From an uncultured bacterium (GTDB lineage: Bacteria > Zixibacteria > MSB-5A5 > JAABVY01 > JAHJOQ01): a stretch of DNA of 64,000 bases. Each line of letters opens with the position of its first letter. Positions within the stretch are counted from its first letter, which is position 1. The stretch covers positions 128,001 through 192,000 of the forward strand of contig CBDUQR010000001.1 in the NCBI GenBank assembly GCA_965369655.1, given 5' to 3'. The notes under the pieces are model-generated. The model saw nothing but the letters and a program-made list of their open reading frames with translations. It had not been told where the DNA came from and searched no databases. Shown one piece after another: positions 7,681-24,610 of this stretch. The position numbers were made by a program, and so were the translations under genes.

Positions 7681-8208
7681 ATGACGTGCAAAGCATTCAG
7701 ATATTGCCCGATGTGCCGCTCTGAGTTGACAGTTCGCGACGAGAACGGGACTAAGCGACCGATGTGCCCGGAATGCGGGTTTGTGCATTACAGGAATCCG
7801 TCACCTGCCGCAGGAGCTGTCATTTTCGACAGCGGCAGGATACTCCTTGTCAGGCGAGCACACGAGCCGTATGTCGGGAAATGGACAATCCCTGCGGGAT
7901 TCATGGAGTGGGGTGAATCGCCGGAAGAGACCACCATTCGCGAAATACTCGAGGAAACGAATCTCAGGATAGAATTGGACGGGCTTTTCCATGTCTACGC
8001 GGGTGATGACGATCCGCGCACAAAGGCAATTCTGATTCTCTATTTCGCGAGATGCACCGGAGGCAGGCTCGAGGCAGGCGATGATGCAGCCGAAGCCCGA
8101 TGGTTCTCTGAGAATGAGTTACCACCCGACGATGAGATCGCTTTCGAATCGCACCGACTCGCACTCCGCAAATTAAGGACTGAGCACGCAAAGCGTTTCA
8201 AAATATGA
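7681..8208 (+). CDS. NUDIX hydrolase with N-terminal zinc ribbon
   Basis: CPMC...CPEC; Nudix box GFMEWGESPEETTIREILEETNL. Confidence 0.92.
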   Translation: MTCKAFRYCPMCRSELTVRDENGTKRPMCPECGFVHYRNPSPAAGAVIFDSGRILLVRRAHEPYVGKWTIPAGFMEWGESPEETTIREILEETNLRIELDGLFHVYAGDDDPRTKAILILYFARCTGGRLEAGDDAAEARWFSENELPPDDEIAFESHRLALRKLRTEHAKRFKI

Positions 8209-9665
8209 AGCTCAAGAACCGGCTGTTCACAGCGCTTCTCCTGCTGGCATTCCTGCCGGTGGCGCTGATCTCCTTCATCACTCTCGAACTGGCATCCGGA
8301 AGTCTGGACCGCCTCGCCTCGCCCGGAATCGCAAATGCACTCGAGGCGGCAGATTCCATCGTCACACTGACTTTCGAGTCTATCGAATCGATGTGCGCGG
8401 ACGGCGCATCCAGAATGGCAAAGCTGCCTCATATTGATAGTGCGCTACTCGGAGATTTCGACTTTGCAATCGTAACAGACAGGGACATGACAGCATGGAT
8501 CGGCGAGGCTCCTGACTCGATAACACGGGAAAAGATATTGGATTTTCACCGGGACAGTTCTGATATCCGGCTCACCGACAGGATAATGTCTGGCGATACA
8601 TTTATCATCGTTGGAAAAGCATCGGCATACGGCGATGATCGACACCTGACGATCACCGTCGGACGAAACATGGGCAATGAGATCGCGCCTCTTTATGAAC
8701 GCCTCGGCAGGAATACTCGTAGCTTCGAGCGACTCGGTCAACTCAAGCATCCCGGAAAGAACACCCTGAGAGTATTATGGGCGGCGTTCGTCGCACTCTA
8801 CCTGCTGCTGATCCTTCTCATTTCGAGAATCACCGCGCGAAAGCTCACAATGCCGTTAGCCCGACTCGGCGAGTTAGCCGAAACAGTGGGGCGTGGTCAG
8901 TGGGATGTCCGGCTCGAATACAATCGCAACGATGAAATCGGCGCACTGACATCCGGATTCAACCGAATGTCGCAGCAACTCGGAGAGACTACGAGAAAAC
9001 TGATCGAGACGGAGAAAATTGCCGCGTGGCAGCAGACGGCTCGCGTGATCGCTCATGGGCTGAAGAACATGCTCGCTCCCATAAGGCTTGCTGTCGCGCG
9101 TCTGCCCGAATCATCTGATAAGAATGAGAGTGCCGACCTGTCACCGATGACAACTATCAATGCCGAACTGAGTCGGCTCGAAAAGGCGGCCGGAGATTTT
9201 TCCCGCTACGGCAAGCCGGTCGAGCCAAATGCCGCGATAATCGATCCGAACGTAGTCGTGAGGCAGGCGATCTCGGTAGCCGAGGGGTGCGACGTCAAGC
9301 TGGAAGTCGATCTGGATAGCAATCTTCCTTACATCAAATGCGATGGCGCACTCCTGAGAGATGCGCTGATAAACCTCGTGAAGAATGCATGCGAGGCAGT
9401 CGATCAGGATGGCTCCGTTGCGATTCAAACCCGAAGCCGCAACGACCGGGTCGAAATCGCCGTATCAGACACGGGCACGGGGATAGATCCGGAGATACGC
9501 GATCGCATCTTCGAACCGTATGTCACGACAAAATCATCCGGAACAGGACTGGGTCTGGCCATCGTAAGGAAGATAGTAGAGTCATCGGGAGGCGCCATCG
9601 AGTTGGAGACAGGCGACAGCGGAACGACTTTCACGCTCAAATTCGAGGCCGCTAATGAGAGATGA
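8205..9665 (+). CDS. Membrane sensor histidine kinase with HAMP domain (NtrY-like)
   Basis: Two TM segments, HAMP (DEIGALTSGFNRM), AWQQTARVIAHGLKN H-box, NLVKNA, DTGTGI, GTGLGL. Confidence 0.92.
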   Translation: MKLKNRLFTALLLLAFLPVALISFITLELASGSLDRLASPGIANALEAADSIVTLTFESIESMCADGASRMAKLPHIDSALLGDFDFAIVTDRDMTAWIGEAPDSITREKILDFHRDSSDIRLTDRIMSGDTFIIVGKASAYGDDRHLTITVGRNMGNEIAPLYERLGRNTRSFERLGQLKHPGKNTLRVLWAAFVALYLLLILLISRITARKLTMPLARLGELAETVGRGQWDVRLEYNRNDEIGALTSGFNRMSQQLGETTRKLIETEKIAAWQQTARVIAHGLKNMLAPIRLAVARLPESSDKNESADLSPMTTINAELSRLEKAAGDFSRYGKPVEPNAAIIDPNVVVRQAISVAEGCDVKLEVDLDSNLPYIKCDGALLRDALINLVKNACEAVDQDGSVAIQTRSRNDRVEIAVSDTGTGIDPEIRDRIFEPYVTTKSSGTGLGLAIVRKIVESSGGAIELETGDSGTTFTLKFEAANER

Positions 9666-11019
9666 ACCTTGTGACATTTTCGTGGTCGATGACGACCGCT
9701 ATCTCAGGGATGAGCTGACCATACTCTTGAGACAGGCGGACTACCACGTTTCATCTCACGAAACGATCTCGTCGTGCAAAAGTGAACTTGCGCGGCGCGT
9801 ACCCCTGTTGATCCTGCTCGATATCCAGTTGCCGGATGGCAACGGCGTCGACTTCCTCAAAGAACTCATGAACAGGGACAATCCCCCTGAGGTCGTGATG
9901 GTCTCCGGTGCGGCATCTCTTCAGGAAGCCGCAGATTCAGTTAAACTTGGCGCCGCCGATTTTCTGGAGAAACCATTCGCGCCGCAGCGACTGCTCTCAA
10001 TCGTCAGGAATTGTATCGAGATTGCCCGACTGAAACAGGCACATGCAAGACTCATCCGGGACAGGCTGGCGGAATTCGAGATCATCGGCGAGTCTGCCGC
10101 TACTGTCGAGACAATTGAACAGATCAGGCAGATCGCCGATACCAACGCTCGCGTTCTGATAACTGGAGAGAGCGGCACGGGAAAAGAACTCGTGGCCGGT
10201 CAGATACACCTTCGCAGCAAGCGCGCCCTGGGACCATTCGTGAAGATCAATTGCTCAGCGATGCCGCCGGATCTCGTCGAGAGTGAACTCTTCGGACATG
10301 AAAGAGGAGCATTCACCGGCGCGGTCGATAAGAGACAGGGCAAATTCGCAGCAGCCGACGGCGGGTCGCTGCTACTCGATGAAATCGGAGATATGCCAAT
10401 CGCGGCGCAGCCGAAACTCCTGAGAACTCTCGAAACAGGCGTGATCGAGCCGATTGGCAGCACAGATGCAATCTCGGTCGATGTTCGGTTGATCAGTTCG
10501 AGCAACCGGGACCTCGACGAGCTTTCAGGTCGTGGTGAGTTCAGATCTGATCTCCTGTACAGAATCAACACTGTACCGATTCATTTGTCTCCTCTTCGCG
10601 ACCGACGCGAAGACATTCCAATTCTCGCGGAGCACTTTCTGACACGGCTTGCATCGCAGAATATGGACACGCGGGCGGAATTTGATGACGGCGTGATGGA
10701 ACTACTGATCGCGCACGACTGGCCCGGAAATGTGAGAGAGCTGCGGAATCTAATCGAACGCGCATTCTACACGTCAACTGACCGCAGAATCACACCGGAG
10801 CATATTAGAATCTGCCTTGGCGAGAAGGGCGACATTACGAAACCCGACATTGAAGCGGGCAATCGCAACAGGCTGTCGGCGGCTGTTACACAATTTGAAA
10901 AAGGTTTTCTGAGGTCTGAACTTCGGGCGGTGGATGGCAATATCAACCAGTTAGCTGGAAAGCTGCGAATGGATCGGGGCAATCTCTACAGGAAGCTGAA
11001 GAAACTTGGACTGCTGTAA
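9655..11019 (+). CDS. Sigma-54-dependent response regulator (NtrC/NtrX family)
   Basis: Receiver (VVDDD, LLDIQLP), GESGTGKE, GAFTGA, LLDEIG, WPGNVREL, C-terminal HTH. Confidence 0.95.
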   Translation: MRDEPCDIFVVDDDRYLRDELTILLRQADYHVSSHETISSCKSELARRVPLLILLDIQLPDGNGVDFLKELMNRDNPPEVVMVSGAASLQEAADSVKLGAADFLEKPFAPQRLLSIVRNCIEIARLKQAHARLIRDRLAEFEIIGESAATVETIEQIRQIADTNARVLITGESGTGKELVAGQIHLRSKRALGPFVKINCSAMPPDLVESELFGHERGAFTGAVDKRQGKFAAADGGSLLLDEIGDMPIAAQPKLLRTLETGVIEPIGSTDAISVDVRLISSSNRDLDELSGRGEFRSDLLYRINTVPIHLSPLRDRREDIPILAEHFLTRLASQNMDTRAEFDDGVMELLIAHDWPGNVRELRNLIERAFYTSTDRRITPEHIRICLGEKGDITKPDIEAGNRNRLSAAVTQFEKGFLRSELRAVDGNINQLAGKLRMDRGNLYRKLKKLGLL

Positions 11020-11126
11020 ACTCTACATCGATGCTGAAAGAATCCGATGTCAATAGTACAACATGTTTTCAACCATGCAACAACCCAACGGATCACAACA
11101 GGCGAGAATGCAGTCACTTATGAATT

Positions 11127-11143
11127 CCGGCATGAATCTTGAT
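11127..11143 (+). promoter_or_regulatory. Possible sigma-54 (-24/-12) promoter
   Basis: CCGGCATGAATCTTGAT versus consensus YTGGCACG-N4-TTGCW; correct spacing but GA instead of GC at -12; directly downstream of a sigma-54 activator gene. Confidence 0.45.
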
Positions 11144-11190
11144 GCAACTTCCGGCAGAGATGACCATATTGCTGGAAGGAAGGTTACAGG

Positions 11191-12993
11191 ATGAATAAGA
11201 GTAGTATCAAATACGGACTGATAGTGGCAGCGTCAGTATCCGCGCTGATTATCATAGCGCTGCTTCTGTCCGGCAGCGCACGAGCAGCAGAGATCACACC
11301 CCCCGAGACGTTTCAACTCACTATCGAACTCAATGACGAGCAGGGCACGATCGTTGTCGAATATGGCGACATGAGGAAACGGTATCGATTCCGTGCCGAC
11401 GAGGTCAGTATTGCAGAGGGTGCAGTGACGATCACGCCCGATTTCGCGTTCACCGTCGACGGCATCCTGGCTGACGGCATACTCTATCCGATAGAGAACC
11501 TCCGAGTCGACGAAATATACCATGAGAAAGAGTTGATCAGTGTTGTCCTCAAGCATCGCAAGCAGACAGCAGCGGCAAAACGCCGACAGATCAAGCGCAA
11601 CCGAGTCGCGGTCACAGGAAGGCTCGTCGTGGATCACGATGATTTCGTCAGAGGAGATATTATCTGTTTCGGAGGAAATATCGAGGTTCGAGGAGAGGTG
11701 AATCGGAATGTAGTGGCAATCTTCGGTGATGTCTTCATCGTGGATGAGGGCATTGTGCGAGGTAATGTCGTGGCCATTGACGGCAAAGTCAACATGCGCG
11801 GCGAGGCGTCGGTCTACGGCGAGATCGCCGCTCACAGAGGACTCAGGAAGAGTGGCGGGGTCCGCGTCAGATTCGACTCCGAGGGATGGGGACCGAAAGA
11901 ATCTGATCTGATCGCATCATACAATCGCGTCGATGGGCTGCTGCTCGGCGGAAGAGGAGCGCTCGCCGATCCGGACTCGCTGCTGCCGACAATCCATGCG
12001 AGCTTAGGTTATGCTTTCGAGTCTGAACGGATGCATTACGAAGTCGGCGTTCACCAGAAACTGTTCGACAAATACTCGTTCACAGCCGGCGGGAGTTTCT
12101 TCAGGCAGACATCGACCGACGACGGCTGGCTTTCGCCTAGAAGAGAAAACTCGCTTCTGGCGATTCTTGCCGCCGAAGATTTCCGTGACTATTATGAGGA
12201 AGAGGGTGGAAAGGCATACCTGACATTCTGCCCCGGATACTACAATGAAATCGGCATCGGCTACAGGTTCACCGACCTGAAATGGATGGATCATCATCCG
12301 CTCTTATGGTCGCTCTTCGGGTGGGAGAAAGAATTCCGTTCCAATTTCTCATCGATCCCAGCTGACAAGAGGCGTGATGCCGGCGATCAATTCGACTCAA
12401 AGCTCGGCGAATTGAGCGCTTGGTACACACTCGACACACGCGATGACGATGAAGAACCATATTCTGGATGGTGGGCGCACGTGGAATACCTGACCGCTGG
12501 CGACAGACTCAAGGGTGACATAGCCTATGACAGACTCACCGCCGAGATCAGACGTTACCAGCCGATCACACACCGTCAGAACATCAATGTCAGGGCGAAA
12601 TACGGCATCGCCGGCAGAGATGTGCCGTTGTTCAGACAGTTCTATCTCGGTGGCATGAGGACAATCCGCGGACTCGATCATAAGAGTCTGATCAAAGTGC
12701 ATGAGCATGTTGTAGCAGGCGACACCGTAACCGTGATAGAGGGCGAACAGATGATCCTCGGGAATCTCGAATATGTCATCAACTTCCCGAAGGCATCTTT
12801 TGAGACCTCGCTGCTGTTCGACGTCGGGAAGGTCGTATCGAGAAAAGATAATATATTCTCCGACGGAGATTTCCATTCATCGGTCGGGATACGGCTCGGC
12901 TTCGAGGATGGCTTCAGCCTCGAGGTAGCCAAATCGCTTGATGACTCTGACGAACCGGTGAAACTGTGGGTACTCTTTCAACAATCATTCTGA
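11191..12993 (+). CDS. Omp85/BamA-TamA family outer-membrane protein with N-terminal bactofilin-like beta-helix repeats
   Basis: Signal peptide; repeats VRGDIICFGGNIEVRGEVNRNVVAIFGDV; barrel motif FYLGGMRTIRG; C-terminal Phe. Confidence 0.8.
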   Translation: MNKSSIKYGLIVAASVSALIIIALLLSGSARAAEITPPETFQLTIELNDEQGTIVVEYGDMRKRYRFRADEVSIAEGAVTITPDFAFTVDGILADGILYPIENLRVDEIYHEKELISVVLKHRKQTAAAKRRQIKRNRVAVTGRLVVDHDDFVRGDIICFGGNIEVRGEVNRNVVAIFGDVFIVDEGIVRGNVVAIDGKVNMRGEASVYGEIAAHRGLRKSGGVRVRFDSEGWGPKESDLIASYNRVDGLLLGGRGALADPDSLLPTIHASLGYAFESERMHYEVGVHQKLFDKYSFTAGGSFFRQTSTDDGWLSPRRENSLLAILAAEDFRDYYEEEGGKAYLTFCPGYYNEIGIGYRFTDLKWMDHHPLLWSLFGWEKEFRSNFSSIPADKRRDAGDQFDSKLGELSAWYTLDTRDDDEEPYSGWWAHVEYLTAGDRLKGDIAYDRLTAEIRRYQPITHRQNINVRAKYGIAGRDVPLFRQFYLGGMRTIRGLDHKSLIKVHEHVVAGDTVTVIEGEQMILGNLEYVINFPKASFETSLLFDVGKVVSRKDNIFSDGDFHSSVGIRLGFEDGFSLEVAKSLDDSDEPVKLWVLFQQSF

Positions 12994-13649
12994 GCAGGGT
13001 CAGCATAACAATCCTGACGCTGCAGATCGTGGTGATCTCAGTTGCTGCTGCGCAGACCACACCCAGAATCACTCCTCTTATCTATCGCGACAGCCTCGCG
13101 GTTGCGATCGACTGCGAGGAATTGTTTGATGACAGCAGGATCAGAGAGCTTCACGATGGTTATCCGCTCTCATTCGAACTGAAACTTTCACTCCGCAAGA
13201 GAGTGCCCCTGTGGACCGACTCAAAAATTGGAGCAGTTAAATCGCGTTTCAGAGTCACATTCAGGCGGTGGGATTCCCGGTACGATCTCGAGCTTGTCGA
13301 CTTTGGTCGTTCGCACTTCTCAGCGCACTTTGAAACGCCCGATGAAATCTTGCTTGAACTGGAAGAGCGGCTTTTTGCTACGATAGAACATGTCTCCCGG
13401 CTCGACAGCACAAGCCACTACTACATCGAAGTCGAAGTCAAATACCGCAACCTGACATTCGACGATGTAAAATCGACTGAGGACTGGCTGACGAACGGCG
13501 ACAACCGAGGCGATTTCGACACCAGCGAAACCATCGACTTCGGCGAGCATCTCGTGAAATTCCTGTGGGATATCGCCGGGCCGGGCGCAGATTCCCGGAA
13601 ATCGACCACGAGGGAGTTCAAACTGGGCGATCTTCGTATTTCCCGATAA
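12966..13649 (+). CDS. DUF4390-like exported protein
   Basis: Signal-like N-terminus; 'ELHDGYPLSFELKLSLRKRVPLWTD' resembles DUF4390, a family usually near NtrY/NtrX genes; start uncertain. Confidence 0.6.
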   Translation: MGTLSTIILSRVSITILTLQIVVISVAAAQTTPRITPLIYRDSLAVAIDCEELFDDSRIRELHDGYPLSFELKLSLRKRVPLWTDSKIGAVKSRFRVTFRRWDSRYDLELVDFGRSHFSAHFETPDEILLELEERLFATIEHVSRLDSTSHYYIEVEVKYRNLTFDDVKSTEDWLTNGDNRGDFDTSETIDFGEHLVKFLWDIAGPGADSRKSTTREFKLGDLRISR

Positions 13650-13821
13650 GCCGCATTCTCAGGACCCAAACCGCCTGTTCCGTGCGATTCCCCAGCCTAC
13701 TAATCACAATCACGACATAAGGTTGCAGCTATTGAGCTTAATTTTACGCTCATGGCTCCGATATATATATAGTTGAAGGGACTTGGGCATCTATAATCCT
13801 AAGAACTCTCGAGGAGTACGT

Positions 13822-15624
13822 ATGCCATACGAAAAACAACATCAAGACGACAGCGATTCGACATCGAAAGTCTACATCCCGAATCTGGGAGGCCAGAACA
13901 AGACCGTAGAGAATGCCACAAAGGCTGAGCAACCAGACCCTCTCGCTGATCTCGAATTGAGTCTTGACATCATAGCACGGAAAAATCCACGACTGACCAG
14001 CAGGACGGACAGATCAGAAGCCCGCAGCACAGACTTGAAGGCGCTCCTGGAAATATCCAACGCAGTCAACTCCACGCTCGTCTTAGATGAGATACTGCGG
14101 ATAGTCATGGGAAAAGCCATCGAGCTGCTGCAGGCGGAACGGGGCTTCCTGATGCTGCTCGATGATAATGGAAAGCTGGCAATCAGGACAGCTCACAATA
14201 TCCAGAAGGACAGGATGCCGGAGGATGATGTCAGGTTGTCTACCTCGATTTCCAACAAAGTTGTCCGGACAGGCAAGCCGGTCTTCTCATCCGATGCACA
14301 GGCTGACGAGCGTTTTGCCAAACAGGAGAGCATTCTCGAACTGCATCTGCGATCAATTATGTGCGTTCCGCTGAAAGTCAAGGACAGGATCATCGGGGTA
14401 GCATACCTCGATAACAGCTCCAACACAAAGATATTCCTGCAGAGCGATCTCTATCTCTTCGAGCTTTTCGCGGAGCAGGCAGCCACAGCGATAGAGAACG
14501 CTAAACTCTACGAGAGTCTTCTCGACCTGAAGCATTACAACGAAAACGTAGTAGATAAGACGCCGGTTGGAATCATCGCCACAGACAACGAGTTGAAGGT
14601 TACATCCCTGAATTCCGCGGCAGCGAAAATACTGAGCACATCGGGCGTCGAACCGGTCCGGTACGATCCGCAATCGGCGCCGGTGCCGTTCGTGTCACTC
14701 TGGCCCGGGAAAAGTGCGGAGCATTGGGACAAAATCGCCAGCGAAGTGCTCAGGACCGGCGATTCGTTCCAGGACAACAAGTACTATCTCCAGGTGGGCG
14801 AAGAGCAGAAAGTCCTCTCCATAAAGATCAGCCTCCTGGACGAGGGCACCAGAGAGAACAGCGGACTCATCGTCGTGATTGAGGATATCACCGACAAGGC
14901 CTTGCTGGAGAATTACGTGCTCATGTCGGAGAGACTGGTTGCGAAAGGTGAGATGGCAGCTGCTATCGGCCACGAACTCAACAACTATCTCACCATCATC
15001 TCGAACAACGCAGAGCTCATGAAGCTCAATGTGCGCCGGAACATACTCGATAAGCTTGAGAAGAACACGAGCGCGATCCTCGACAACATTGCCAAAATCA
15101 AGAGGTTCACAGACAGCCTGATGGATTACTCCAGGCTGGAAGCGGAGATTATCGATTATCAGGTCAGTGAACTCATCGAGGAGTTGCTATTCTCGATCAG
15201 ACCGCAGAAGGAAATCAGGCATGCATCGATCGAGGTCGATATTCCGACCGACCTGCCAATAGTAGAGATGGATGTGGGACAGATGCACCAGGTGCTTCTC
15301 AACCTCATCAACAATGCCGTAGAAGCCGTTCGAGATAAGAAGGATGTGAAGGCCGAAATCCTGATAACTGCATCGCACGATCGAACGACGGATGAGATTT
15401 CGATTGAAGTAGCCGACAACGGTCCCGGGATAAAGCCGAAAAATATCAAGAAGATTTTCGAACCAAGATTCACGACCAGGCAAGAAGGACACGGACTCGG
15501 TCTGTCGAACTGTAAGCGTATCATGGACAGCCATCACGGGAGCATAACCGCAATATCCGATGGCTGCGACGGCGCTACTTTCAGAATAACCATGCCCGTC
15601 AGACAGCCGGTCGACGCAAAATAG
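13822..15624 (+). CDS. Cytoplasmic GAF-PAS histidine kinase
   Basis: GAF (LRSIMCVPLK..IIGVAYLD), PAS, IGHELNNYL H-box, NLINNA, DNGPGI, GHGLGL; GAGGAG RBS before ATG 13822; no TM segment. Confidence 0.92.
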   Translation: MPYEKQHQDDSDSTSKVYIPNLGGQNKTVENATKAEQPDPLADLELSLDIIARKNPRLTSRTDRSEARSTDLKALLEISNAVNSTLVLDEILRIVMGKAIELLQAERGFLMLLDDNGKLAIRTAHNIQKDRMPEDDVRLSTSISNKVVRTGKPVFSSDAQADERFAKQESILELHLRSIMCVPLKVKDRIIGVAYLDNSSNTKIFLQSDLYLFELFAEQAATAIENAKLYESLLDLKHYNENVVDKTPVGIIATDNELKVTSLNSAAAKILSTSGVEPVRYDPQSAPVPFVSLWPGKSAEHWDKIASEVLRTGDSFQDNKYYLQVGEEQKVLSIKISLLDEGTRENSGLIVVIEDITDKALLENYVLMSERLVAKGEMAAAIGHELNNYLTIISNNAELMKLNVRRNILDKLEKNTSAILDNIAKIKRFTDSLMDYSRLEAEIIDYQVSELIEELLFSIRPQKEIRHASIEVDIPTDLPIVEMDVGQMHQVLLNLINNAVEAVRDKKDVKAEILITASHDRTTDEISIEVADNGPGIKPKNIKKIFEPRFTTRQEGHGLGLSNCKRIMDSHHGSITAISDGCDGATFRITMPVRQPVDAK

Positions 15625-15626
15625 AA

Positions 15627-18600
15627 ATGCAGCAGTCCAGGATCGATCTCCCAGAGAGATACGCGATTCTCGACTCCCTCGGAGAGGGCGGCGGCGGGAG
15701 TGTGTTCAGGGTGAAGGACAAGTTCACGGACCGGACTGTTGCTCTCAAGCTGTTCAGCCCGGCCGGGGATGTGCCGACCGACGAAGATGCGTTTCGGAAC
15801 GAGTTCCTTCTCACCGTATCGCTGAATCACCCGAATTTGATGGCTGCATATGATTACGGCTATGATGCCGGCAATCATCCCTTCTTTACTGCGGAACTGG
15901 TCGACGGATCGCGGATCGATTCCGAAGTCGCCTTGAGAGACAAGAACACATTCCTCGATCTCCTCGGACAGATATGCGCAGGGCTCAGGCACCTGCACAT
16001 CTTCGGGTACTCACACAACGACCTAAAGCCCGAGAACATCCTTATTGACCTGCATGAGAGAAAGCCGGTAGCAAAGATTCTCGACTTTGGACTCGCCCGG
16101 CGATACGATCCGACTCACGCAAAAAAGATGTCAGGCACTGTCGAATACATGGCGCCGGAAATCTTCAAGTCTGAAGCTCCGACATCAGGGAGCGACATCT
16201 ACACACTCGGAGTAATCCTCTATGAACTGGTCACAGGCCACAAGCCATACGAGAGCGATGATCCGCTCGAAGTCATCTCCGGGCACATCGAAGGGCGCCT
16301 TCCTCCAATCGAACCGCGAGTGGGATTCTTCGGCGAAGATTGCATTCGGATATTATCAGGCATGCTCGCCAAGACTCCATCGGAAAGGCCGGAGAACATC
16401 TCCAGAGTCTTCAATTCCTTTGCTCGCGCCCTTGGTGCTGAGACGAGTCGGGTCGGAGATGATCAACTCATCTGCGCGTTTGAGTCATCGATCAATTTGC
16501 TAATATCTCGCTCTGAATATCTCGATGATATTCTCTCCAATAGAGAGACAGAATTTCGCGTTTTATGTACCGATAGTGTCATAGCTGACTCGACCGCGAG
16601 ATTCCTGATGGCGCGGCTCCAGACCATGTTTGTCAACGTGCGCATCGACGGAAATGATCTCAGCATGACGTCGGTTCACGCGAAAGAAACCGTTGACATC
16701 GCAACAGTCGACTGTCGAGACAGCTTCGATACATGCGGCTCACGCATCGTGAACATCCATAACTACGGGAGAATCCCTGACGATCTTACAGGCGCAACGA
16801 TCCTCGAAGGCGACAGACTGATCCCGGCTGCGCTCGAAACGATACTCCGGACCGACAAGGAATCTGTCAGGCACAGGGATGCAGTAGTGGAATTGTGCGG
16901 TGGTGACTGCGCTCTTGCGAAGGCAACACTCGCGCAGTTGTGGCGCGACGGAGTTATCACCGACGACGATATCGGATTCAGAATTACATCCGACCCTGCA
17001 AATAATCTGCCACAGAGCATTAGCAGCATCGTCACTGAGGATCTGTCGTTCCTGAACAATGACGAGTTGACCGCATTGACAGGCCTGTCTCTGTTCACGC
17101 ATGATTTCTCGGAGCAACTGGCGACAGCGATCCTGACCGAACTGCACTGCGACGCGCCAAACATGCTCACGAATCTTGTGTCTTACAGAACACTGATCGA
17201 GCAGGGCGACAGGTACAGCTTCAGACATCCGGTAATGCAGAAAGTCCTGAATGCCAGACTTGAATCGGAAATCAGACGTTCGCTGCATCTCATCGCCGCC
17301 CGACAGATCGAAAGCGACAATGACCTCGAAGATACAGTACGTACCGGTCGTGTCGGCTATCATCTGCTGTGCGCAGGCGAATTGCAGAAGTCTATCGGAT
17401 ACGTTGTCGAATACCAGAAGATGCTTGCCGACAAAGGGGAATTCGTGGAGCCGGAGGCGCTGCTCGCGTCGTGTGAGCAAGCCGCAATGACTGATAGTTC
17501 GATCGACGACGGTTCAAGAAGCGAGCTCCTTATGGCGTTCGGCGATCTCCTGAAGAATCAGGGAAGATTCGATGAGGCCGCAGACAGGTATAGACAAATT
17601 ACAGAACTTCCCGGAGTGGAGCCTCGTCTCCTGGCCGAGACTTACAAGGATCTCGGTGATATTTACAAGTCGCAGGTTGATTTCACGTCCGGCCTCAGAG
17701 TCCTCGAAAAAGCGCTCAAGATTTACGGGGAACTGGACGACCGCCTCGAGGTTTCTCATACCCTGAACAACATGGGCAACATGTACTGGATCAACTCGCA
17801 GTATGATTTCGCCCTGGATAAATATCAGCAGGCTCTCGAGATTCAGGAAGAACTGGATGCTGTCAAAGACATCGCCTCGACATTGTCGAATATCGGCACA
17901 ACTTACTACATCAAAGGCGCCCACCATACGGCGATTGAGTACTACGAACGCTCTATTGAACTCAAAAAGATCATCAATGATGAACCGGAAATCGCCAGAA
18001 CATACAACAACATGGCGGCCGCCTATCTCCGCATACAGCAAGCTGGGCGCGCTCTCAACTACCTGAACCGATCAATGGCCATCAACAGAAGGATCGGCGC
18101 ACAGAAAGAGCTGATGTTCAACCTCGAGAACACGGTCGAGGTATGTATGGGACTCGGCGAGTTCAAGAGATCTGAAGAGCTTGCCGCAGAGGGGCTTGCT
18201 TCGGCGCGACGACTCGACGACTCGCCGCACGTCGGAATATTCAGCTATTGGCTCGGCCTGCTCTACGGAGAGCGCGGACTGCTCGGTCAATCACTGAGAT
18301 ACCTCGAGAAATCTGAGGAGATCGGCGACAGCATCTCAGACAAATCATTTTCCGCCAGAACGCAGTTAGCGCTCGCACACAATTACATCCAGATGAACTC
18401 TCTCGACAGGGTTGGATCATGCATCGCAAAAGCCCGGAAGGTCATCTCTCCTGTCGACCCAAGCCATGAACTTACGTATCTGAAAGTGATCAGTGCCCGC
18501 GAAGACTTCATCTCGGGCAAAGACACAGGCGCAATCCTCGCGAAGCTTGATATTGCTGAGAAGGAAGCCGAAAAGCACGACCATTATGTCGAGCTGTGTG

Positions 18601-19037
18601 AGGCATTGTTGGTGCGGCTCGACGTGACGCTCGCAGGAGGCAGGATACAGGCGGAAGATCTCGAGAAACTCGACAAGATGACCGAGGTGGATCAACACAC
18701 CATCTACCGCAGCCATCTCTACTTCTACCTTGCCGTATCAAGCATGCGTGACACGCTGTTCAATGAAGCTCTAAGCTATTTCGAGCAGGCTCAGGTCATG
18801 GCAACAGCGTTTGAACAGCGAGAACTCCTCGCGAGAATAAATCTCTACAGCGGCAAGGTCTGTATCAGGCAACTGGAATACGAAGATGCGTTCTTCAGAT
18901 TGAAGCAGGCCGGTGAGATTGTGAAGGGAATCGTTGCCGATATCGGCGATATTGGGCTCGTTAGATCCTATATGAGTAGTCCTGAAAAACTCGAACTGGT
19001 GGAGGCGGTCAGACACCTGGCTGTGAAGCTCGGTTGA
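15627..19037 (+). CDS. Hanks-type Ser/Thr protein kinase fused to a degenerate central domain and a long TPR array
   Basis: LGEGGGGSV, VALK, HNDLKPEN, DFGLA, GTVEYMAPE; repeats such as HTLNNMGNMY, STLSNIGTTY, RTYNNMAAAY. Confidence 0.92.
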   Translation: MQQSRIDLPERYAILDSLGEGGGGSVFRVKDKFTDRTVALKLFSPAGDVPTDEDAFRNEFLLTVSLNHPNLMAAYDYGYDAGNHPFFTAELVDGSRIDSEVALRDKNTFLDLLGQICAGLRHLHIFGYSHNDLKPENILIDLHERKPVAKILDFGLARRYDPTHAKKMSGTVEYMAPEIFKSEAPTSGSDIYTLGVILYELVTGHKPYESDDPLEVISGHIEGRLPPIEPRVGFFGEDCIRILSGMLAKTPSERPENISRVFNSFARALGAETSRVGDDQLICAFESSINLLISRSEYLDDILSNRETEFRVLCTDSVIADSTARFLMARLQTMFVNVRIDGNDLSMTSVHAKETVDIATVDCRDSFDTCGSRIVNIHNYGRIPDDLTGATILEGDRLIPAALETILRTDKESVRHRDAVVELCGGDCALAKATLAQLWRDGVITDDDIGFRITSDPANNLPQSISSIVTEDLSFLNNDELTALTGLSLFTHDFSEQLATAILTELHCDAPNMLTNLVSYRTLIEQGDRYSFRHPVMQKVLNARLESEIRRSLHLIAARQIESDNDLEDTVRTGRVGYHLLCAGELQKSIGYVVEYQKMLADKGEFVEPEALLASCEQAAMTDSSIDDGSRSELLMAFGDLLKNQGRFDEAADRYRQITELPGVEPRLLAETYKDLGDIYKSQVDFTSGLRVLEKALKIYGELDDRLEVSHTLNNMGNMYWINSQYDFALDKYQQALEIQEELDAVKDIASTLSNIGTTYYIKGAHHTAIEYYERSIELKKIINDEPEIARTYNNMAAAYLRIQQAGRALNYLNRSMAINRRIGAQKELMFNLENTVEVCMGLGEFKRSEELAAEGLASARRLDDSPHVGIFSYWLGLLYGERGLLGQSLRYLEKSEEIGDSISDKSFSARTQLALAHNYIQMNSLDRVGSCIAKARKVISPVDPSHELTYLKVISAREDFISGKDTGAILAKLDIAEKEAEKHDHYVELCEALLVRLDVTLAGGRIQAEDLEKLDKMTEVDQHTIYRSHLYFYLAVSSMRDTLFNEALSYFEQAQVMATAFEQRELLARINLYSGKVCIRQLEYEDAFFRLKQAGEIVKGIVADIGDIGLVRSYMSSPEKLELVEAVRHLAVKLG

Positions 19038-19050
19038 TGTATATAGGGAA

Positions 19051-19074
19051 AGAGGCCGCCAAAAGGCGGCCTCT
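19051..19074. terminator. Intrinsic terminator hairpin between convergent genes
   Basis: Perfect 10-bp stem AGAGGCCGCC-AAAA-GGCGGCCTCT. Confidence 0.85.
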
Positions 19075-19107
19075 AATTCCGGTCATCATCACCTTTGGGG
19101 CATAGGG

Positions 19108-19182
19108 TTATTGACCACCCAGACTGATTCCCGCAGGTGCGACTTTCTCTTCCAGTTCTTCAATCAAGAGATCATAGGTCAT
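19108..19182 (-). CDS. 24-aa small peptide MTYDLLIEELEEKVAPAGISLGGQ (not in ORF track)
   Basis: ATG..TAA ORF with AGGAGGTG Shine-Dalgarno at normal spacing, its own sigma-70-type promoter and a downstream terminator. Confidence 0.8.
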   Translation of the reverse strand: MTYDLLIEELEEKVAPAGISLGGQ

Positions 19183-19284
19183 AGTCACACCTCCTATGTT
19201 GACGTGGACGACCGATCCCCCGCTCTCGCGGGTTACCCGAGATTGTCATCTTCATCTCTGAAGATGAGTTAGCTAACTGGATAA

Positions 19285-19313
19285 ATATTAGCGATCTGAT
19301 CGACAGATGTCAA
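19285..19313 (-). promoter_or_regulatory. Sigma-70-type promoter of the small peptide gene
   Basis: TTGACA-N17-TAATAT on the minus strand. Confidence 0.7.
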
Positions 19314-19375
19314 GCTAATTCTGACAAAAAACCGCGTAATTGACAGAAACCCAAATAGTTGGATGGGCTTCAGGC

Positions 19376-21202
19376 CTACAGAGTTTCCATCTCCTTCAGC
19401 CTTTTTCTGGCATGCTCCTGAAGGATCAGATTATCGAACTCGGTGAGAAGCCTGCGGTAGGCGCTTTCAGATACGGCAAGATCGCCGCTCTCGAACTGAA
19501 TGTCCGCTATGTATCTTAGAGATTCCGCTCTATAGAAGCTGTCCGTGAAGTCATCGAGAATCCTCTTAAATGTCTCTACCGCGACCAGGGAATCGCCCAG
19601 CAGCAACTGCAACTCGCCAAGCCTGAAAGTGGATATATCGGCCAGCAAAGCTCCCTCTTTCGACGAGATGCCCGTCAGCAGCACCGCAGCGGAGTCGTAT
19701 CTCCCGGTCAGAATCATGTGTTCGGAATCGGCATAGGAATCAAGATCGATTCTGTCGAAACCGACAATTTCGTCGATCATCAGTATCTTGCGCAGGCAAT
19801 CGTTGACATAAAGCCCCTTGCGAAACCTGACAGTCAACTGTGCATACAGTCTCTTCGCCTCATCGTAGTTGTGTGAAAAAAACTTCGATTGAGCTTTTCT
19901 CCAGATCAGCCTTTCCTGACCTTCCTCAGAGAGTTTGTCCATCTGAACCAGATCGTATAGACTGTCGGCTGTTTCAAAATCGTCCAGAGCTATGTAGCAG
20001 TCACCCATCCAGAGCATCGCCAAGTGATGCCATATCAAAGTCCTTGGATCGTCGGTAACACTGCCAAAATACACAAGTGCGGAATCAGGCTCATTCATGC
20101 TCTCGAGATACAGCCTTCCGATAGCGAAACGTGCTTCGATGATCTCTCGGCCATCAGGAGAGTTCTCCGCGATCTGGTGCAGGACCGAGATCGCCGAGTC
20201 GCCATGTCCCATATTGGAGTATGCCGCCGAAAGAACATAGCGGGCTTGAATCACGCCCGGTTTGCCAGGATACTGGTCGAGCACGAACCTGCACGTTTCC
20301 ACGGCCAGAGGATAGTCTTCGCGCTCAAGGCATCTCCTTGCGAAAAAAACCAGGTATCTGCCTTCTTCATGCCGAAGTTCATCGACCTCTCTGTATACCT
20401 GATAAGCCTCGCGGAGGTCGTTCTGCCTGATAAGCAAGTCAGCGTAATATTTCCTCGGGATATGATCCGATGGGTGAGCCTTCGACAATGCGACAAACTC
20501 AGCCTTCAGAAGCTCCATGTCCTCGTCGTCATCAACAGAATCGACCAGCCGCCTGAGGAGCCGGTGCCCGCGTTCCATATTGAGCGTGTCGGAAACGGTG
20601 AACATGTAGTATTCTCGCGCGGCAGCCGGGTAATCTCTCCGAACCTCATACAGCCTGCCGAGTTGCTCGGCAAAGAGATACTTGTCGCCCTGTCTCTCTC
20701 TCCCCTTCAGGTAGGTTCCAATCGCCTCATCATAAAGTCCGTTGGCGCGGTAGACGCCCGATATCCGATGAGTGACGCTCTCTTTCCTCGGTGAATTCTT
20801 GAGACACATATCGAACTGTTTCGCCGCGTCTGAAAGCTCGCCCATCCGGAGATAAAGATGACCGTATTGGAGAAGGACATCGACAGTCCTGCCAGAGAGC
20901 TTCTCCATCTTCTCTATCGCGCTGGCAGCCTTCTCAAAATCCTTCGAGTAGATGTAGACCTTGCTTGTCAGCGACAGCACCGAGAGATCGTCAGGGTACT
21001 CCCTGTCGAGTTCGGTCAGCAGAATCAGAGCCTTGTCGTACCTGCCGTTCGCAACATGGCTTGACACCTTCTGAAGCGCGAGCTTTAGCCTTGCTTCGTT
21101 CTCATCCTGACCAAGCGCGATCTCGCTCGACATCCACAGCAGTACGAACATGAATGCGGTAAGGACGGAAATCGTCGCGTGAGATCGGTCGAACGAAAGC
21201 AC
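19376..21202 (-). CDS. Exported tetratricopeptide repeat protein
   Basis: Signal-like N-terminus followed by many TPR-like helical repeats; translationally coupled to the upstream gene. Confidence 0.85.
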   Translation of the reverse strand: MLSFDRSHATISVLTAFMFVLLWMSSEIALGQDENEARLKLALQKVSSHVANGRYDKALILLTELDREYPDDLSVLSLTSKVYIYSKDFEKAASAIEKMEKLSGRTVDVLLQYGHLYLRMGELSDAAKQFDMCLKNSPRKESVTHRISGVYRANGLYDEAIGTYLKGRERQGDKYLFAEQLGRLYEVRRDYPAAAREYYMFTVSDTLNMERGHRLLRRLVDSVDDDEDMELLKAEFVALSKAHPSDHIPRKYYADLLIRQNDLREAYQVYREVDELRHEEGRYLVFFARRCLEREDYPLAVETCRFVLDQYPGKPGVIQARYVLSAAYSNMGHGDSAISVLHQIAENSPDGREIIEARFAIGRLYLESMNEPDSALVYFGSVTDDPRTLIWHHLAMLWMGDCYIALDDFETADSLYDLVQMDKLSEEGQERLIWRKAQSKFFSHNYDEAKRLYAQLTVRFRKGLYVNDCLRKILMIDEIVGFDRIDLDSYADSEHMILTGRYDSAAVLLTGISSKEGALLADISTFRLGELQLLLGDSLVAVETFKRILDDFTDSFYRAESLRYIADIQFESGDLAVSESAYRRLLTEFDNLILQEHARKRLKEMETL

Positions 21203-24200
21203 TATCGGTCGACCTCCATGATCGCCTTGAAGTAGTCTTTGATGATCTCTTCGTACTCCGGAGGGTAGCCCTCTTCGAGGAATTTCTGGAGACGCCTCTC
21301 ATACGATTCAGATCCGACCTGAGCCGCCTCGTCGAGCGGATCGGGTCCCATGCGAAGAATCTGCTCAGCTCTGCTGGCTCGCCGTGTCTCGCTGTAGTCC
21401 TGTCGTTCCATAGAGAGTTGGAAATCGAGCATTCTCTGATATATCTTATTCTGCCGTTCGAGAGTCTCGTCTGTCACGCCTCCCTGTTCGAGGGCTTCGA
21501 CAACTCTTCGCATTTCTTCGGCCATGTTTTCCAGACGACCCTTTATCTGTTTCCTGTCGCCCAATTCTTCCTGAAGCTGCTGAACAGACTTGCGGACCGC
21601 GGACTGCTCTGCCGACAGTCGCTCCAACATGCTCTTGTCGCCCTGACCACGCTGATTGGGGTTGTTACACATGTTCTGCGACTGCTGGTTGATGCGCTTT
21701 TGTTGTTTGCATGTCTTGTTCATCTTCTGGAACATGCTCTGATTCGGCTTATTGCAGGATGAATTGCATTGTTGTTGGTTGTTGAGCGACTCCATTATTA
21801 CTCTCGAAGCCTGATTCAGAGACCCGATAGTATTCTTCTGCGACCCTATCGCCTGCGAGGCCTGCATTTCAGTCAGTGAAGAGGTCGATCTGCTCATTCC
21901 CGACATGCACTGCTTCATCAATTTGTCAATCTGACTCTGCATGAAGACTGATTCTTTCGCAATGTCGATAAGTTTCTGCCTGAGTGCCGAGGCCTGTGAC
22001 TGGAGAACCTGCTGTTCCTCGGCCAGCTTTCTGAGTTCCGATGACTGCATTTCATATCTGCCGACATCGCCCAATATCTCTTCCTGCTTGTCCGTGAGAT
22101 AGAATACGTCATCGAGCGCCTTCCTCATTTCCTTAGCCATCTGCTGCCCCATCTGCTGACTGAGAGCCATCTGCGCATCCTGCATCTGCTCCAGCATTTC
22201 CATAAGCTTCTGTTCCGCAGAATCACCCGACATCATGGCGTCGAGCTTCTCACTATCCGAGAGACTTGCAGTCATCTCCTCCATATCCTTCTCGGCGCCC
22301 GATTCCCTTGTCGCCCGGCAGAAACTCTTCGAGTGGGGGCTGCTGTCCATTTTGGCTTCTTTGAAGAGCTTCTCAAGCTCATCAGATTTCCGTTTCAGAT
22401 CTTCGAGTGAATTCCTGACCTGCTGTTCCTTCGGTGATAGATCAGGAAGTTTCTCCCTGTCGGATTTCTCGGTCCGTTCGTTGACCTTCTGCTGGTTCCG
22501 AAGGATTTCTTCGGCCTGACGGATCATATCCTGCATCATCTGGTCGGCCTGAAGTTGCTTGAGCTGGGCGATCGCACGTTCGATATTCTGGAGCACATCT
22601 TCGAGAGACATATCGAAGTTCTCCATCGCTTTTTCGACAGCCTCCTTGTCCATTTTCGCCAGCGCTTCCTGGAGTTTCTTCATCGCTTCTTTCATTTCAG
22701 GAGTGGCGACCTCCTCGAACAACTTCTGAAGCTCCTCGATCTTCTGGATCATCTGGAGAGTCAGAAGCTGATTCTTCTTAGCTTCCTGATTCGTCTCCTC
22801 GAACTGCTTCGCAAGTTCCTCGTACTCGTTGAGAAGCTGTTCCTGTCTCTCCGCAACCGATTCAAATGCTTTCTTGTCTTCCCAGTCGAGTTCTTTTTCG
22901 AGCCTGAGAGCCTGAGTCATCTCCCTGAACTCTTCGCCGATCCGCTCCTGCTGCTTGAGAGCCTCGACATATTCATTCATTTGATCCTCTCTGGAGCTTT
23001 CGATCTCCGAGAAAATCTCGCCGAGAGTCGGCAGCCTGACCGCCATCACCGGTCCGGTCGTCGATTTGGGACCGATCACGAAATCATTGTCGAATACTTC
23101 GAGATAGTACTCGATCCAGCTTCCCGGCAGCAGCCCGACATTCGCCAGATCCCAGAAATAATCAATCTGCTGCTCTGGTTTATATCCGGATATCTCGATC
23201 TTTTCAGATTGCTTCCATTCTTCGGTCGCCGTCAGATGAACAGTGTAGTTGAGCAAAAGCTTCGTGAATCCAAAATCATCGACCAGGTTAGCTATGAGTC
23301 GAACAGCCATGTCTTCGTCGAGGTCAACATTGCCACTCGGACTGACCATGTATATCTCAGGAAAGGCATCATCGAGAACTGTCACGCGATATTCGATCGG
23401 ATTGGGATTGCCGTACCCCGATCGGTCGGTAACCTCAGCATGATACGACAAGTCTGTCTCGACCTTTATCGTCGCGGTCGACACCTCGTGATCGCATTCC
23501 AGGTCTATTCTGCTTCCATCGGAGAACAGGAGCGCGCCCTGCTCGACAGGCTTATTGGCGGTCAGTTCGACATTGACTTTGGTTCCGCGAAGAGCCTGGA
23601 TATTGCCGTCGTTCTCATCGATAACAAGCGGTTTCAGCCTGGTGTATTTCGGATACATATATGTGAGCTTCAGGCCGGTGATCCTCGGCTTGTCGACCAC
23701 AGTTACATTGAACTGAATCGATTCTTCTCGTCCCGCCATGACAAAGTAGACGAAGTCGTGTCTTACTTCTTTGAACTTGTAGGTGAATACGTTTGAGTCC
23801 GGGCTTATGCCGAGAGCATTGACTATCCCCGGTGATGCTCCCGGAATGATCTTCTTCTCAAGCTCGTCGGATCGCCATTTGCCTTCACCGGAATTATCCC
23901 AGAATATCTCCGCCCGGTCCGGAAGCTTCTCGCCCCTGACTATGACTGTCAGTTCCAGAGGATCATATTTCAGGAGTTCCTTGTCTCCCGGCGCGACCGT
24001 CAACTCGTATGTTCTCGGCAGTTCGATCTCTTCCAGCGGATGCGAGAAAACATAAAATGAAGACCAGAACAGCCCCGGTGTCAGGATCGCAAGCAGAAGC
24101 GTCACGGCAGCCGCAGCCCCGAAGTACTTGAGCAGTGCAGTGAGTTTGCGGTTCGAATAGCTCGATTTGAGATTGAGACTGTCGATCATGCCACTGGTCC

Positions 24201-24597
24201 GGGATATAAGCGCTCTGATCATATCCGTCGAATAGTTCTCACGATTCTCGTGCAAATTCTGTTCGAGCTGCAATGATGCGATCACGCGGTTTTCCAACTG
24301 CGGGTACTTGCGCTCGACCCGGCGCGACATCGTTTCAAGCGATGGTCTGAACATAACCGGCACGATCAGACACCTGGCAATCAGGAATACCAGAAACAAT
24401 ACCACAATGCCGACAAAGACCGATCTGACGGTAACATCAAGGTAGAACAGGGCATGCATCAGGTTGGCGACAGCGAACGCGATCAGCAGGGCTGTCGCGA
24501 TGAGAACTATAGCGTACACCGACCGACAGAGAACGACATATCGCCTGAGACCTTTGAGTCTCCGCGTCAGCGAGATCATGTCATCGCGGATCGACAT
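21202..24597 (-). CDS. DUF4175-like membrane-anchored coiled-coil protein
   Basis: Three N-terminal TM helices, Ig-like middle (DDFGFTKL), long Q/E/M-rich coiled coil, C-terminal YPPEYEEIIKDYFK. Confidence 0.8.
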   Translation of the reverse strand: MSIRDDMISLTRRLKGLRRYVVLCRSVYAIVLIATALLIAFAVANLMHALFYLDVTVRSVFVGIVVLFLVFLIARCLIVPVMFRPSLETMSRRVERKYPQLENRVIASLQLEQNLHENRENYSTDMIRALISRTSGMIDSLNLKSSYSNRKLTALLKYFGAAAAVTLLLAILTPGLFWSSFYVFSHPLEEIELPRTYELTVAPGDKELLKYDPLELTVIVRGEKLPDRAEIFWDNSGEGKWRSDELEKKIIPGASPGIVNALGISPDSNVFTYKFKEVRHDFVYFVMAGREESIQFNVTVVDKPRITGLKLTYMYPKYTRLKPLVIDENDGNIQALRGTKVNVELTANKPVEQGALLFSDGSRIDLECDHEVSTATIKVETDLSYHAEVTDRSGYGNPNPIEYRVTVLDDAFPEIYMVSPSGNVDLDEDMAVRLIANLVDDFGFTKLLLNYTVHLTATEEWKQSEKIEISGYKPEQQIDYFWDLANVGLLPGSWIEYYLEVFDNDFVIGPKSTTGPVMAVRLPTLGEIFSEIESSREDQMNEYVEALKQQERIGEEFREMTQALRLEKELDWEDKKAFESVAERQEQLLNEYEELAKQFEETNQEAKKNQLLTLQMIQKIEELQKLFEEVATPEMKEAMKKLQEALAKMDKEAVEKAMENFDMSLEDVLQNIERAIAQLKQLQADQMMQDMIRQAEEILRNQQKVNERTEKSDREKLPDLSPKEQQVRNSLEDLKRKSDELEKLFKEAKMDSSPHSKSFCRATRESGAEKDMEEMTASLSDSEKLDAMMSGDSAEQKLMEMLEQMQDAQMALSQQMGQQMAKEMRKALDDVFYLTDKQEEILGDVGRYEMQSSELRKLAEEQQVLQSQASALRQKLIDIAKESVFMQSQIDKLMKQCMSGMSRSTSSLTEMQASQAIGSQKNTIGSLNQASRVIMESLNNQQQCNSSCNKPNQSMFQKMNKTCKQQKRINQQSQNMCNNPNQRGQGDKSMLERLSAEQSAVRKSVQQLQEELGDRKQIKGRLENMAEEMRRVVEALEQGGVTDETLERQNKIYQRMLDFQLSMERQDYSETRRASRAEQILRMGPDPLDEAAQVGSESYERRLQKFLEEGYPPEYEEIIKDYFKAIMEVDR

Positions 24598-24610
24598 AAC
24601 TACATACCTT

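Follow-up and report, generated by a model that had tools for sequence, protein, structure and literature searches.

We report that a 24-codon open reading frame (ORF) on the minus strand of a 64,000-nucleotide stretch of Zixibacteria DNA (contig CBDUQR010000001.1, positions 128,001 to 192,000; hereafter the window) is a real gene, under selection and kept across an uncultured phylum: a conserved, phylum-wide micro-gene that gene callers miss. Sequence comparison and structure models somewhat favor reading its product as the leader-core precursor of an apparently undescribed family resembling peptides made on the ribosome and modified after translation (RiPPs). The peptide gene co-occurs and is syntenic with two others, a convergent gene for a Ser/Thr kinase bearing a tetratricopeptide repeat (TPR) array and a gene for a membrane protease predicted to join a RiPP recognition element (RRE), a site-2 protease (S2P) and a HlyD part, and its leader motif is common to daptides. 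The explanation that appears to fit best, processing by the RRE-S2P-HlyD protein together with coupling to the kinase, has in our estimate a probability of about 0.55.

The minus strand of positions 19051-19313 carries promoter boxes, a Shine-Dalgarno (SD) sequence, the 24-codon ORF and a hairpin. The sigma70-like boxes, TTGACA-N17-TAATAT (19285..19313), match at 10 of 12 positions and would give a 5' untranslated region (UTR) of about 96 nt (19183..19278), with a GC hairpin (CCCGC/GCGGG, 19232-19219) and, ahead of the SD, a CGGTC box. The strong SD, AGGAGGTG (19195-19188), precedes an ATG at 19182, from which the ORF (19182..19108) reads MTYDLLIEELEEKVAPAGISLGGQ, 24 amino acids (aa), to a TAA at 19110-19108. 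A program-made ORF list opens the frame at an in-frame GTG at 19188 (26 aa); the ATG is the likelier start because this GTG falls inside the SD. Residues 1-16, MTYDLLIEELEEKVAP (19135..19182), make up the leader, in which L10, E11, A15 and P16 are invariant, and residues 17-24, AGISLGGQ (19111..19134), the predicted core, the cleavage site being placed by homology. The peptide and kinase stops, the latter at 19037, are separated by a perfect 10-bp GC-rich hairpin, AGAGGCCGCC-TTTT-GGCGGCCTCT (19074-19051), with 8 GC pairs among its 10, and the 76-nt gap between the two genes folds at -31.6 kcal/mol. Boxes, SD, ORF, hairpin and convergent kinase-TPR gene are all present where the first-pass annotation of the window had placed them. 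That annotation also spoke of a terminator shared by both genes and a leader of ~95 nt. The perfect hairpin stands; its function as a terminator and the extent of the leader are putative, since the promoter pattern occurs at 2 sites in the window against 1.4 +/- 1.3 in shuffles, so that a match by itself is not beyond chance, and since a terminator scan of the window did not flag the hairpin, whose T-tract is weak on both strands. No Rfam family was found in 18800-19600, where the best match was engA RNA at 18.9 bits against a gathering score of 46.

Because it is conserved in relatives, we rate the ORF far above chance. Among 40 relatives searched, DNA similarity was limited to the SD and the ORF, with none past the stop codon, in relatives as distant as other families of the class, and the first 14 loci examined all encoded the peptide. 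Across 15 sequences the differences at the three codon positions numbered 392/224/1147, so that the third position dominates; synonymous codon differences stood at 872 and non-synonymous at 474, and the conserved core Ser is encoded by both AGY and TCC. The homologues came to 85, of which 68 were unique, and a purine-rich SD-like stretch, GGAGG in most, precedes 68/68. A hidden Markov model (HMM) from 13 peptides found matches in 210 of the 285 Zixibacteria-type metagenome-assembled genomes (MAGs) that served as both class set and phylum set, and an HMM from 60 peptides raised this to 235, among them 166 of the 198 high-quality genomes. Two families, f3 (0/3) and f4 (0/5), gave no match to the peptide HMM. 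Pfam and NCBIfam scans returned no family for the 24-mer, and none of five 23-25-aa forms looked up occurs in a collection of 15 billion proteins; three of five tail-extended forms (>=32 aa) do occur there, under the sole name 'hypothetical protein'. The gene is usually single-copy. In family f11 (loci L100, L101, L102, L110) each locus has the peptide gene twice in tandem, and the cores are rich in Gly; genome G020 holds four copies over two contigs, and G037 (L138, L139) two unlinked copies, both far from the kinase gene.

The 60 aligned Zixibacterial homologues all have L(-7), E(-6), A(-2) and P(-1) in the leader (60/60); position -10 is hydrophobic, -9 is Glu in 56/60, -4 is Lys or Arg in 59/60 and -3 is Ile, Val or Leu in 59/60. 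Identity to the window's peptide is 70-88% in the nearer families and 50-88% over all 60. Most cores follow the pattern x-G-hydrophobic-S-[LQ]-G-G-Q, with GGQ in 50/60, a Gly/Trp-rich tail of 5-9 residues after GGQ in 11/60, and Ser at core position 3-4 in 55/60 (Asp there in one). The deep families f7, f14, f15 and f19 keep the leader and carry other Gly/Ser-rich cores of 7-8 residues, and C-termini are mostly Gln, the rest being Gly, Ser, Arg, Leu, Glu, Asp and others. The first-pass annotation had suggested testing for a conserved leader and a tail that varies with the TPR paralogue; here the leader is universal and the core differs among deep lineages. In the daptide reports, the leader motif is given as ELExMEAP, with the same L-E-x3-A-P spacing as here, and daptides are described as cut after ELExxxxx by an RRE-fused site-2 protease, MpaP/DapP (10.1101/2023.03.08.531785; 10.1101/2025.07.11.664356). 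As this homologous system is cut right after the matching motif, we predict cleavage after Pro16, which would yield the octapeptide AGISLGGQ; the division of the peptide into ...KVAP and AGISLGGQ, proposed earlier from the window, coincides with the daptide cut position. A conserved leader, a variable core and an RRE in the partner protease, which together mark RiPP systems, are all found here, and contact between leader and RRE is predicted.

The candidate protease is encoded directly upstream of the peptide gene, on the same strand, in 38/66 loci. This protein of ~770 aa contains Peptidase_M50 and HlyD domains (Pfam), and its best NCBIfam match is NF041824, 'daptide biosynthesis intramembrane metalloprotease' (218 bits, E 1.7e-64, model 4-364 of 379). 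The window's genome encodes its copy on another contig (G000:C21:31218-33509), with 44% identity and a match to the same model of 235 bits (E 1.1e-69); over both proteins the alignment covers model positions 4-365 of 379, and the equivalog cut-off is 300 bits. The HExxH motif is invariant in 27 orthologues. In an AlphaFold2 (AF2) model of the N-terminal 400 aa, with a mean predicted local distance difference test (pLDDT) score of 86.7, residues 15-86 form three strands and then three helices. Foldseek matched this segment to RREs solved with leader peptides, TbiB1 (5v1u) at a TMt of 0.70-0.72 and a root-mean-square deviation (rmsd) of 3.3-3.4 A, with further RRE matches to PqqD 5sxy, 6jx3, CteB, TruD and LynD, and it matched the rest of the model to S2P (3b4r) and SpoIVFB (8vjl). 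As modeled, the protease is an N-terminal RRE followed by an S2P fold. The peptide's upstream neighbor varies among loci, and in the window's own family, in f17 and in part of f5 the protease gene is displaced while the peptide stays beside the kinase gene. In the window the upstream same-strand neighbors (19376-25306, minus strand) encode a 608-aa TPR protein, a 1131-aa DUF4175 membrane protein and a 231-aa ORF; these three replace the ClC channel and protease pair of other families, which stands together on contig C21 of the same genome (L130: 9216-13449). The first-pass annotation's remark that no protease, exporter or maturase is adjacent thus holds for this window and fails for most relatives, and its 'orphan' precursor turns out to have an RRE-site-2-protease-HlyD gene as ancestral upstream neighbor.

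The third partner is the kinase-TPR gene. In 62/66 further loci the 3' end of the kinase-TPR orthologue meets a convergent peptide gene, the stop-to-stop gap is <81 nt in 42/54 pairs, and the pairing persists across 18/20 families. A full-length kinase orthologue (E <= 1e-110) was found in 238/285 genomes, with control scores of <=246 bits for paralogues and >=480 bits for orthologues, and the protease N-terminal domain in 238/285. Peptide, kinase and protease are all present in 220 genomes and all missing from 34, leaving 31 mixed: peptide and protease in 7, peptide and kinase in 5, peptide in 3, protease and kinase in 8, protease in 3 and kinase in 5. Some mixed genomes are incomplete or have contig ends (e.g. 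G005), and families f3 and f4 are without all three genes. These counts are descriptive and not tests, because kin are not independent. The full-length HMM replaced a probe from the kinase's middle module (16464-17546, kinase aa 280-640), which was too divergent: the module shows 31% identity within the family, and the single-sequence probe found 10/285 genomes. In genus g10 (G014, G032, G046, G047, G049 and others) many kinase matches were flagged '1 TAA' inside the match, which may reflect an in-frame stop that is conserved or no more than the terminal stop taken into the alignment.

What happens when the kinase is lost is informative. In genus g56 the kinase orthologue is found in 0/5 genomes; behind the protease gene stand tandem copies of the peptide gene, 7 in G105 and 4 in G103, with an unbroken leader and a core of the form S-[RK]-[YWF]-G-x-x, and the locus lacks a kinase gene. 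Both genomes are single-contig (96% and 95% complete), and their best kinase HMM matches are paralogues, at 246 and 233 bits, against 1107 bits in the control G098. In G141 and G089 (1063 and 1040 bits) the kinase gene has only moved elsewhere, and these genomes keep the GGQ core. The other candidate losses are not clean: a partial gene remains in G279, and in G015, which also keeps the GGQ core, the gene is split over three overlapping frames (L220, G015:C152, 2524-6035), as a pseudogene or through assembly error. Genus g56 is therefore the sole clean loss, a single event. The first-pass annotation had rested the pairing on proximity only. Convergence throughout the phylum, an all-or-none phyletic pattern and a change of core upon kinase loss take it further.

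The kinase-TPR protein (15627..19037, plus strand; 1136 aa; Pkinase and TPR by Pfam) consists of a kinase domain (aa 1-275), an alpha/beta, helical and winged-helix stretch (aa ~305-545) and a TPR solenoid of ~30 helices (aa 547-1135). It has no transmembrane segment, as expected of a cytoplasmic protein. Kinase catalytic residues are invariant in 53 orthologues and the Asn ladder of the TPR is conserved. The AF2 model (pLDDT 92) has a PknB-like kinase domain, and Foldseek with the whole model gave mainly kinase domains among the matches listed. Within TPR residues 628-939, 312 residues superpose on complexes of the LGN TPR with peptides at a Z of 26.6 and an rmsd of 3.9 A (LGN/Pins complexes 4g2v, 5a6c, 3sf4 and 6hc2 were compared), a common repeat fold that shows no function by itself. 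The middle module had no sequence match in the PDB and no Walker-A motif by eye; its likeness to signal transduction ATPases with numerous domains (STAND) is therefore argued from the order of its secondary structure.

The family extends beyond the phylum. Scanning metagenomes with the protease alignment gave 457 relatives, of which 80 were kept, and the locus counts that come next are of those 80. A peptide-HMM match lies beside the protease gene in 39/80 loci. Seven are Zixibacteria-type, with the peptide downstream of the protease, a GGQ-type core and a convergent kinase gene; in ~28, most of them soil contigs, 1-5 precursors stand in tandem upstream of the protease, with a leader ending EELE[EQA]RIAP and hypervariable, G/N/P/S/H-rich cores of 30-59 aa, and no kinase-TPR orthologue alongside. 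A motif pattern served to choose the 56 metagenomic precursors, and the constancy of its fixed positions is in part a product of that choice; where the pattern permitted alternatives, R, I and A were each found in 56/56. Pfam and NCBIfam held no family for nine long precursors. One 60-aa member matched 150 proteins at E <= 0.001, the named ones all 'hypothetical protein', and the few labelled MAGs among them were Cyclobacteriaceae, Bacteroidetes or Verrucomicrobiae. In the Atlas, clusters with M50 and HlyD occur in Planctomycetota, Pseudomonadota and Acidobacteriota, one of them with PqqD on 26% of members. Eight soil-type loci showed no consistent tailoring enzyme, and a TolC-like OEP gene lies near one metagenomic locus. 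Core types recur between soil contigs (L177:2121-3765, L176:636-1965, L212:3061-3885, L201:2056-2211 and others) as Asn/His-rich repeats, 'GYEGQPGNQ'-like repeats and 'ANPEG' repeats, with several types side by side per locus; the His/Asn-rich cores might bind metal.

These observations led us to a model of processing and kinase coupling. The acidic 16-residue leader would be bound in the cytoplasm by the RRE of the RRE-site-2-protease-HlyD membrane protein, whose protease would then cut after A-P and release the octapeptide AGISLGGQ, and the periplasmic HlyD part would probably pass the octapeptide on for export. In Zixibacteria the short conserved core would be functionally tied to the convergent cytoplasmic kinase, whose middle module resembles a nucleotide-binding oligomerization domain (NOD): the core or the precursor is most likely a ligand of the LGN-like TPR groove, such that the peptide level would set kinase output, and a role for the core as kinase substrate seems less likely. 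The cleavage site, export and the contact with the kinase are the elements that we infer.

Several points weigh against this model. The system is known here from genes and models alone. The protease scores, 218 and 235 bits, fall short of the NF041824 cut-off of 300; the Foldseek E-values behind the RRE assignment exceed 0.001 for this multi-domain query, at probabilities of 0.99-1.00 (0.97-1.00 with the S2P matches included); and the protease gene is unlinked to the peptide gene in this genome. No transporter able to energize export was identified, and no conserved tailoring enzyme stands near the peptide gene in Zixibacterial or metagenomic loci; the peptide may be unmodified and not a true RiPP. 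Synteny, co-occurrence and one loss event among kin that are not independent make up the case for the kinase link. The kinase's middle and TPR regions diverge fast (31% identity within the family) against 70-88% for the peptide in the nearer families, which is odd for a simple ligand-receptor pair, and strain-specific pheromones do not typically keep their core so constant over a whole phylum. A complex prediction of kinase aa 280-1136 (53-row alignment) with the peptide (60-row) scored 0.00 against a mark of 0.32; it was run with no controls, and a partner of <30 aa falls outside the calibration, so the score speaks on neither side of the question of binding.

One alternative is an intracellular micro-protein regulator, in which the whole 24-mer binds the kinase-TPR protein and the RRE-S2P protein merely degrades it, so that envelope signals act through turnover and nothing is exported. 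The kinase-TPR protein does lack a transmembrane segment, the peptide is highly conserved in its entirety and not in the leader alone, its gene is usually single-copy and tightly paired with the kinase gene (the gaps of <81 nt given above), and the surrounding operon is all signal transduction. Yet the protease bears a periplasmic HlyD-type adaptor, the relatives' tandem precursors with hypervariable cores are typical of exported products, and the Gly/Trp-rich tails after GGQ in 11/60 homologues suit a core that is released. We consider this regulator unlikely, although it fares best among the alternatives to the processing model.

Ranked somewhat lower is a role for the kinase as tailoring enzyme: the TPR array would hold the precursor while the Hanks-type kinase domain phosphorylates core Ser20 before leader removal, giving a phospho-octapeptide. 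In class III/IV lanthipeptide synthetases the RiPP core is acted on by a kinase domain, and the kinase domain here has weak NCBIfam matches to these enzymes. The near-constant Ser at core position 3-4, with Asp in its place once, and the invariant catalytic residues would fit, as would the loss of the G-x-S-x-GGQ core where the kinase is lost. However, no lyase or cyclase domain accompanies the kinase; the combination of kinase, NOD-like module and >=14 TPRs, in an operon with histidine kinases and a sigma54 regulator, looks regulatory; and the kinase-less genus g56 retains a Ser at P1'.

It is improbable, to a slightly greater degree again, that the kinase link is purely positional, with the peptide serving the protease and export system alone in an inherited gene order. 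The long-core metagenomic relatives do have the protease without a kinase-TPR gene, and shared ancestry inflates the co-occurrence counts. But where the protease gene has moved away (the window's own family, f17, part of f5), the peptide is still found beside the kinase gene, the pairing survives across 18/20 families, and the sole clean kinase loss coincides with core change and amplification. Finally, a Pup/UBact-like modifier, deamidated at its C-terminal GGQ and then ligated to lysines, can be dismissed as very improbable: the GGQ after an acidic helical segment does resemble Pup, and the tails beyond GGQ in some homologues recall ubiquitin-like precursors, but the Pup ligase/Dop family PF03136 has 0 matches in this 99.5%-complete genome (a control genome matched), the one proteasome-family match, in a 192-aa open frame, has counterparts in 10/14 control genomes including E. 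coli and B. subtilis, and the C-terminus is not GGQ in deep families or g56; for want of a ligase we rejected Pup/UBact identity.

If the processing and coupling model is right, a leader of the form [VIL]-E-E-L-E-x-[RK]-I-A-P would be read by a dedicated cut-and-export machine, a new secretion route related to, and distinct from, daptide maturation. In Zixibacteria this route would be reduced to one conserved octapeptide, cognate to a STAND-like Hanks kinase through an LGN-like TPR groove, and the result would be a peptide-to-Ser/Thr-kinase circuit of a kind undescribed in bacteria. The joint proposition, a large, unannotated peptide family of the Fibrobacteres-Chlorobi-Bacteroidetes (FCB) and Planctomycetes-Verrucomicrobia-Chlamydiae (PVC) groups with an RRE-protease-HlyD export route plus a Zixibacterial octapeptide as kinase ligand or substrate, is tentative, with the odds against it. 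The daptide-type logic of leader and RRE-protease would extend to a far broader group of peptides for which Pfam and NCBIfam offer no model and whose only name is 'hypothetical protein'. To our knowledge the ligands of TPR-bearing Hanks kinases are largely unknown, and the system offers a concrete candidate for peptide control of such a kinase in uncultured sediment bacteria. The short leader and its protease could also serve as a portable cleavage and export tag.

Upstream of the homologues, a TTGAC[AG]-N16-18-TAnnnT box with >=10/12 matches occurs in 43/69, 96-248 nt before the start (most at 117-205), and most of the remainder have a box with 9/12 matches. A sigma54 promoter was found upstream of the peptide in 0/69, and a link of the peptide gene to the nearby sigma54 regulator was dropped on that count. 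Between -75 and -15 the UTRs have more structure than shuffled sequences do (mean z -1.58, 51/69 below -1), RNAalifold gave no consensus structure for 18 UTRs, and a perfect inverted repeat of >=6 bp stands in 30/55 peptide-kinase gaps. A short GC hairpin lies 25-35 nt upstream of the SD in nearly every 5' UTR (window 19205-19235; L020 ~10075-10095), with a lineage-specific stem sequence; families f1, f2 and f5 have a box with ACCGGT after it, part of a longer palindrome in L020 and L027. The hairpin and box could serve as an operator or in the control of translation. At many loci (L093, L116, L117, L120, L121 and others of f8 and f17) the peptide and kinase stops are 26-45 nt apart with no hairpin, so the convergent transcripts must overlap, and the two genes may there affect each other by antisense or by transcriptional interference.

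The kinase-TPR gene is the last in a conserved plus-strand operon whose preceding genes (8205..15624; domains by Pfam) encode a HAMP histidine kinase (8205-9665), a sigma54-dependent response regulator (9655-11019), an Omp85-family protein (11191-12993), a DUF4390 protein (12966-13649) and a GAF-PAS histidine kinase (13783-15624). The gene order is likewise found in relatives; we describe these genes as neighbors and as possible members of the peptide system.

A literature search returned nothing on this system; the supplements of the daptide papers, which lay outside its coverage, may list related leaders or protease fusions. Among known TPR proteins, LGN/Pins binds extended peptides in a solenoid on which the array here superposes, a likeness of fold alone. 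STAND-type Ser/Thr kinases and regulators with TPR sensor arrays, of the PknK, MalT and AfsR type, share the order of kinase, alpha/beta and winged-helix module and long TPR solenoid; a Walker-A motif was not seen here. The YydH/LiaK epipeptide maturation protease is likewise an HExxH membrane protease dedicated to a RiPP and gives NCBIfam matches of 43-46 bits, but these are far under the cut-off of 225, the architecture differs, and no radical-SAM epimerase is present. Colicin V and class II bacteriocin systems use double-glycine leaders, a peptidase-containing ABC transporter, an HlyD adaptor and TolC. As proposed here, leader removal is coupled to an HlyD-bearing membrane machine and the peptides are un- or lightly modified and often tandem, whereas the protease here is an RRE-site-2 metalloprotease in place of a C39 cysteine protease, an ABC domain was not found, and the leader motif is another.

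In RRNPP signaling, to which the first-pass annotation had likened the locus, the M50 protease Eep matures the ~22-aa peptide of the Rgg/SHP system to a pheromone the size of its C-terminal octapeptide. The two have in common a tiny peptide gene beside a cytoplasmic TPR protein, an M50-family protease and a presumed active C-terminal stretch of ~8 residues. The output here is a Hanks kinase with a NOD-like module and not a helix-turn-helix (HTH) domain or a phosphatase (no HTH by Pfam), the leader is acidic and predicted to be recognized by an RRE rather than signal-peptide-like, no Opp genes stand among the conserved neighbors, and the host is diderm. We rejected RRNPP identity because the output is a kinase, in a diderm phylum of the FCB group.

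Daptides are the nearest relatives, although identity with them was also rejected, because the C-terminal Thr is missing and no tailoring set is conserved among the neighbors. Daptides have an invariant C-terminal Thr, which is converted to an amine; here none of the 60 homologues and 56 metagenomic precursors ends in Thr (L218 ends Thr-Arg). The DapB/C/D/M set (RRE protein, alcohol dehydrogenase, aminotransferase, methyltransferase) is absent among conserved Zixibacterial neighbors and inconsistent in eight metagenomic loci, the search having covered neighborhoods and not whole genomes. The protease here is also HlyD-fused, the Zixibacterial core has 8 residues, and the hosts are uncultured bacteria of FCB/PVC type, not Actinomycetota or Bacillota. 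What the two systems share is, to judge from the published motif, a short acidic leader with L-E-x3-A-P at the same spacing, differing at positions -8, -4 and -3; a protein in which an N-terminal RRE is joined to an HExxH site-2 protease, with homology along almost the full length of NF041824; and, in the metagenomic relatives, multiple precursors per locus.

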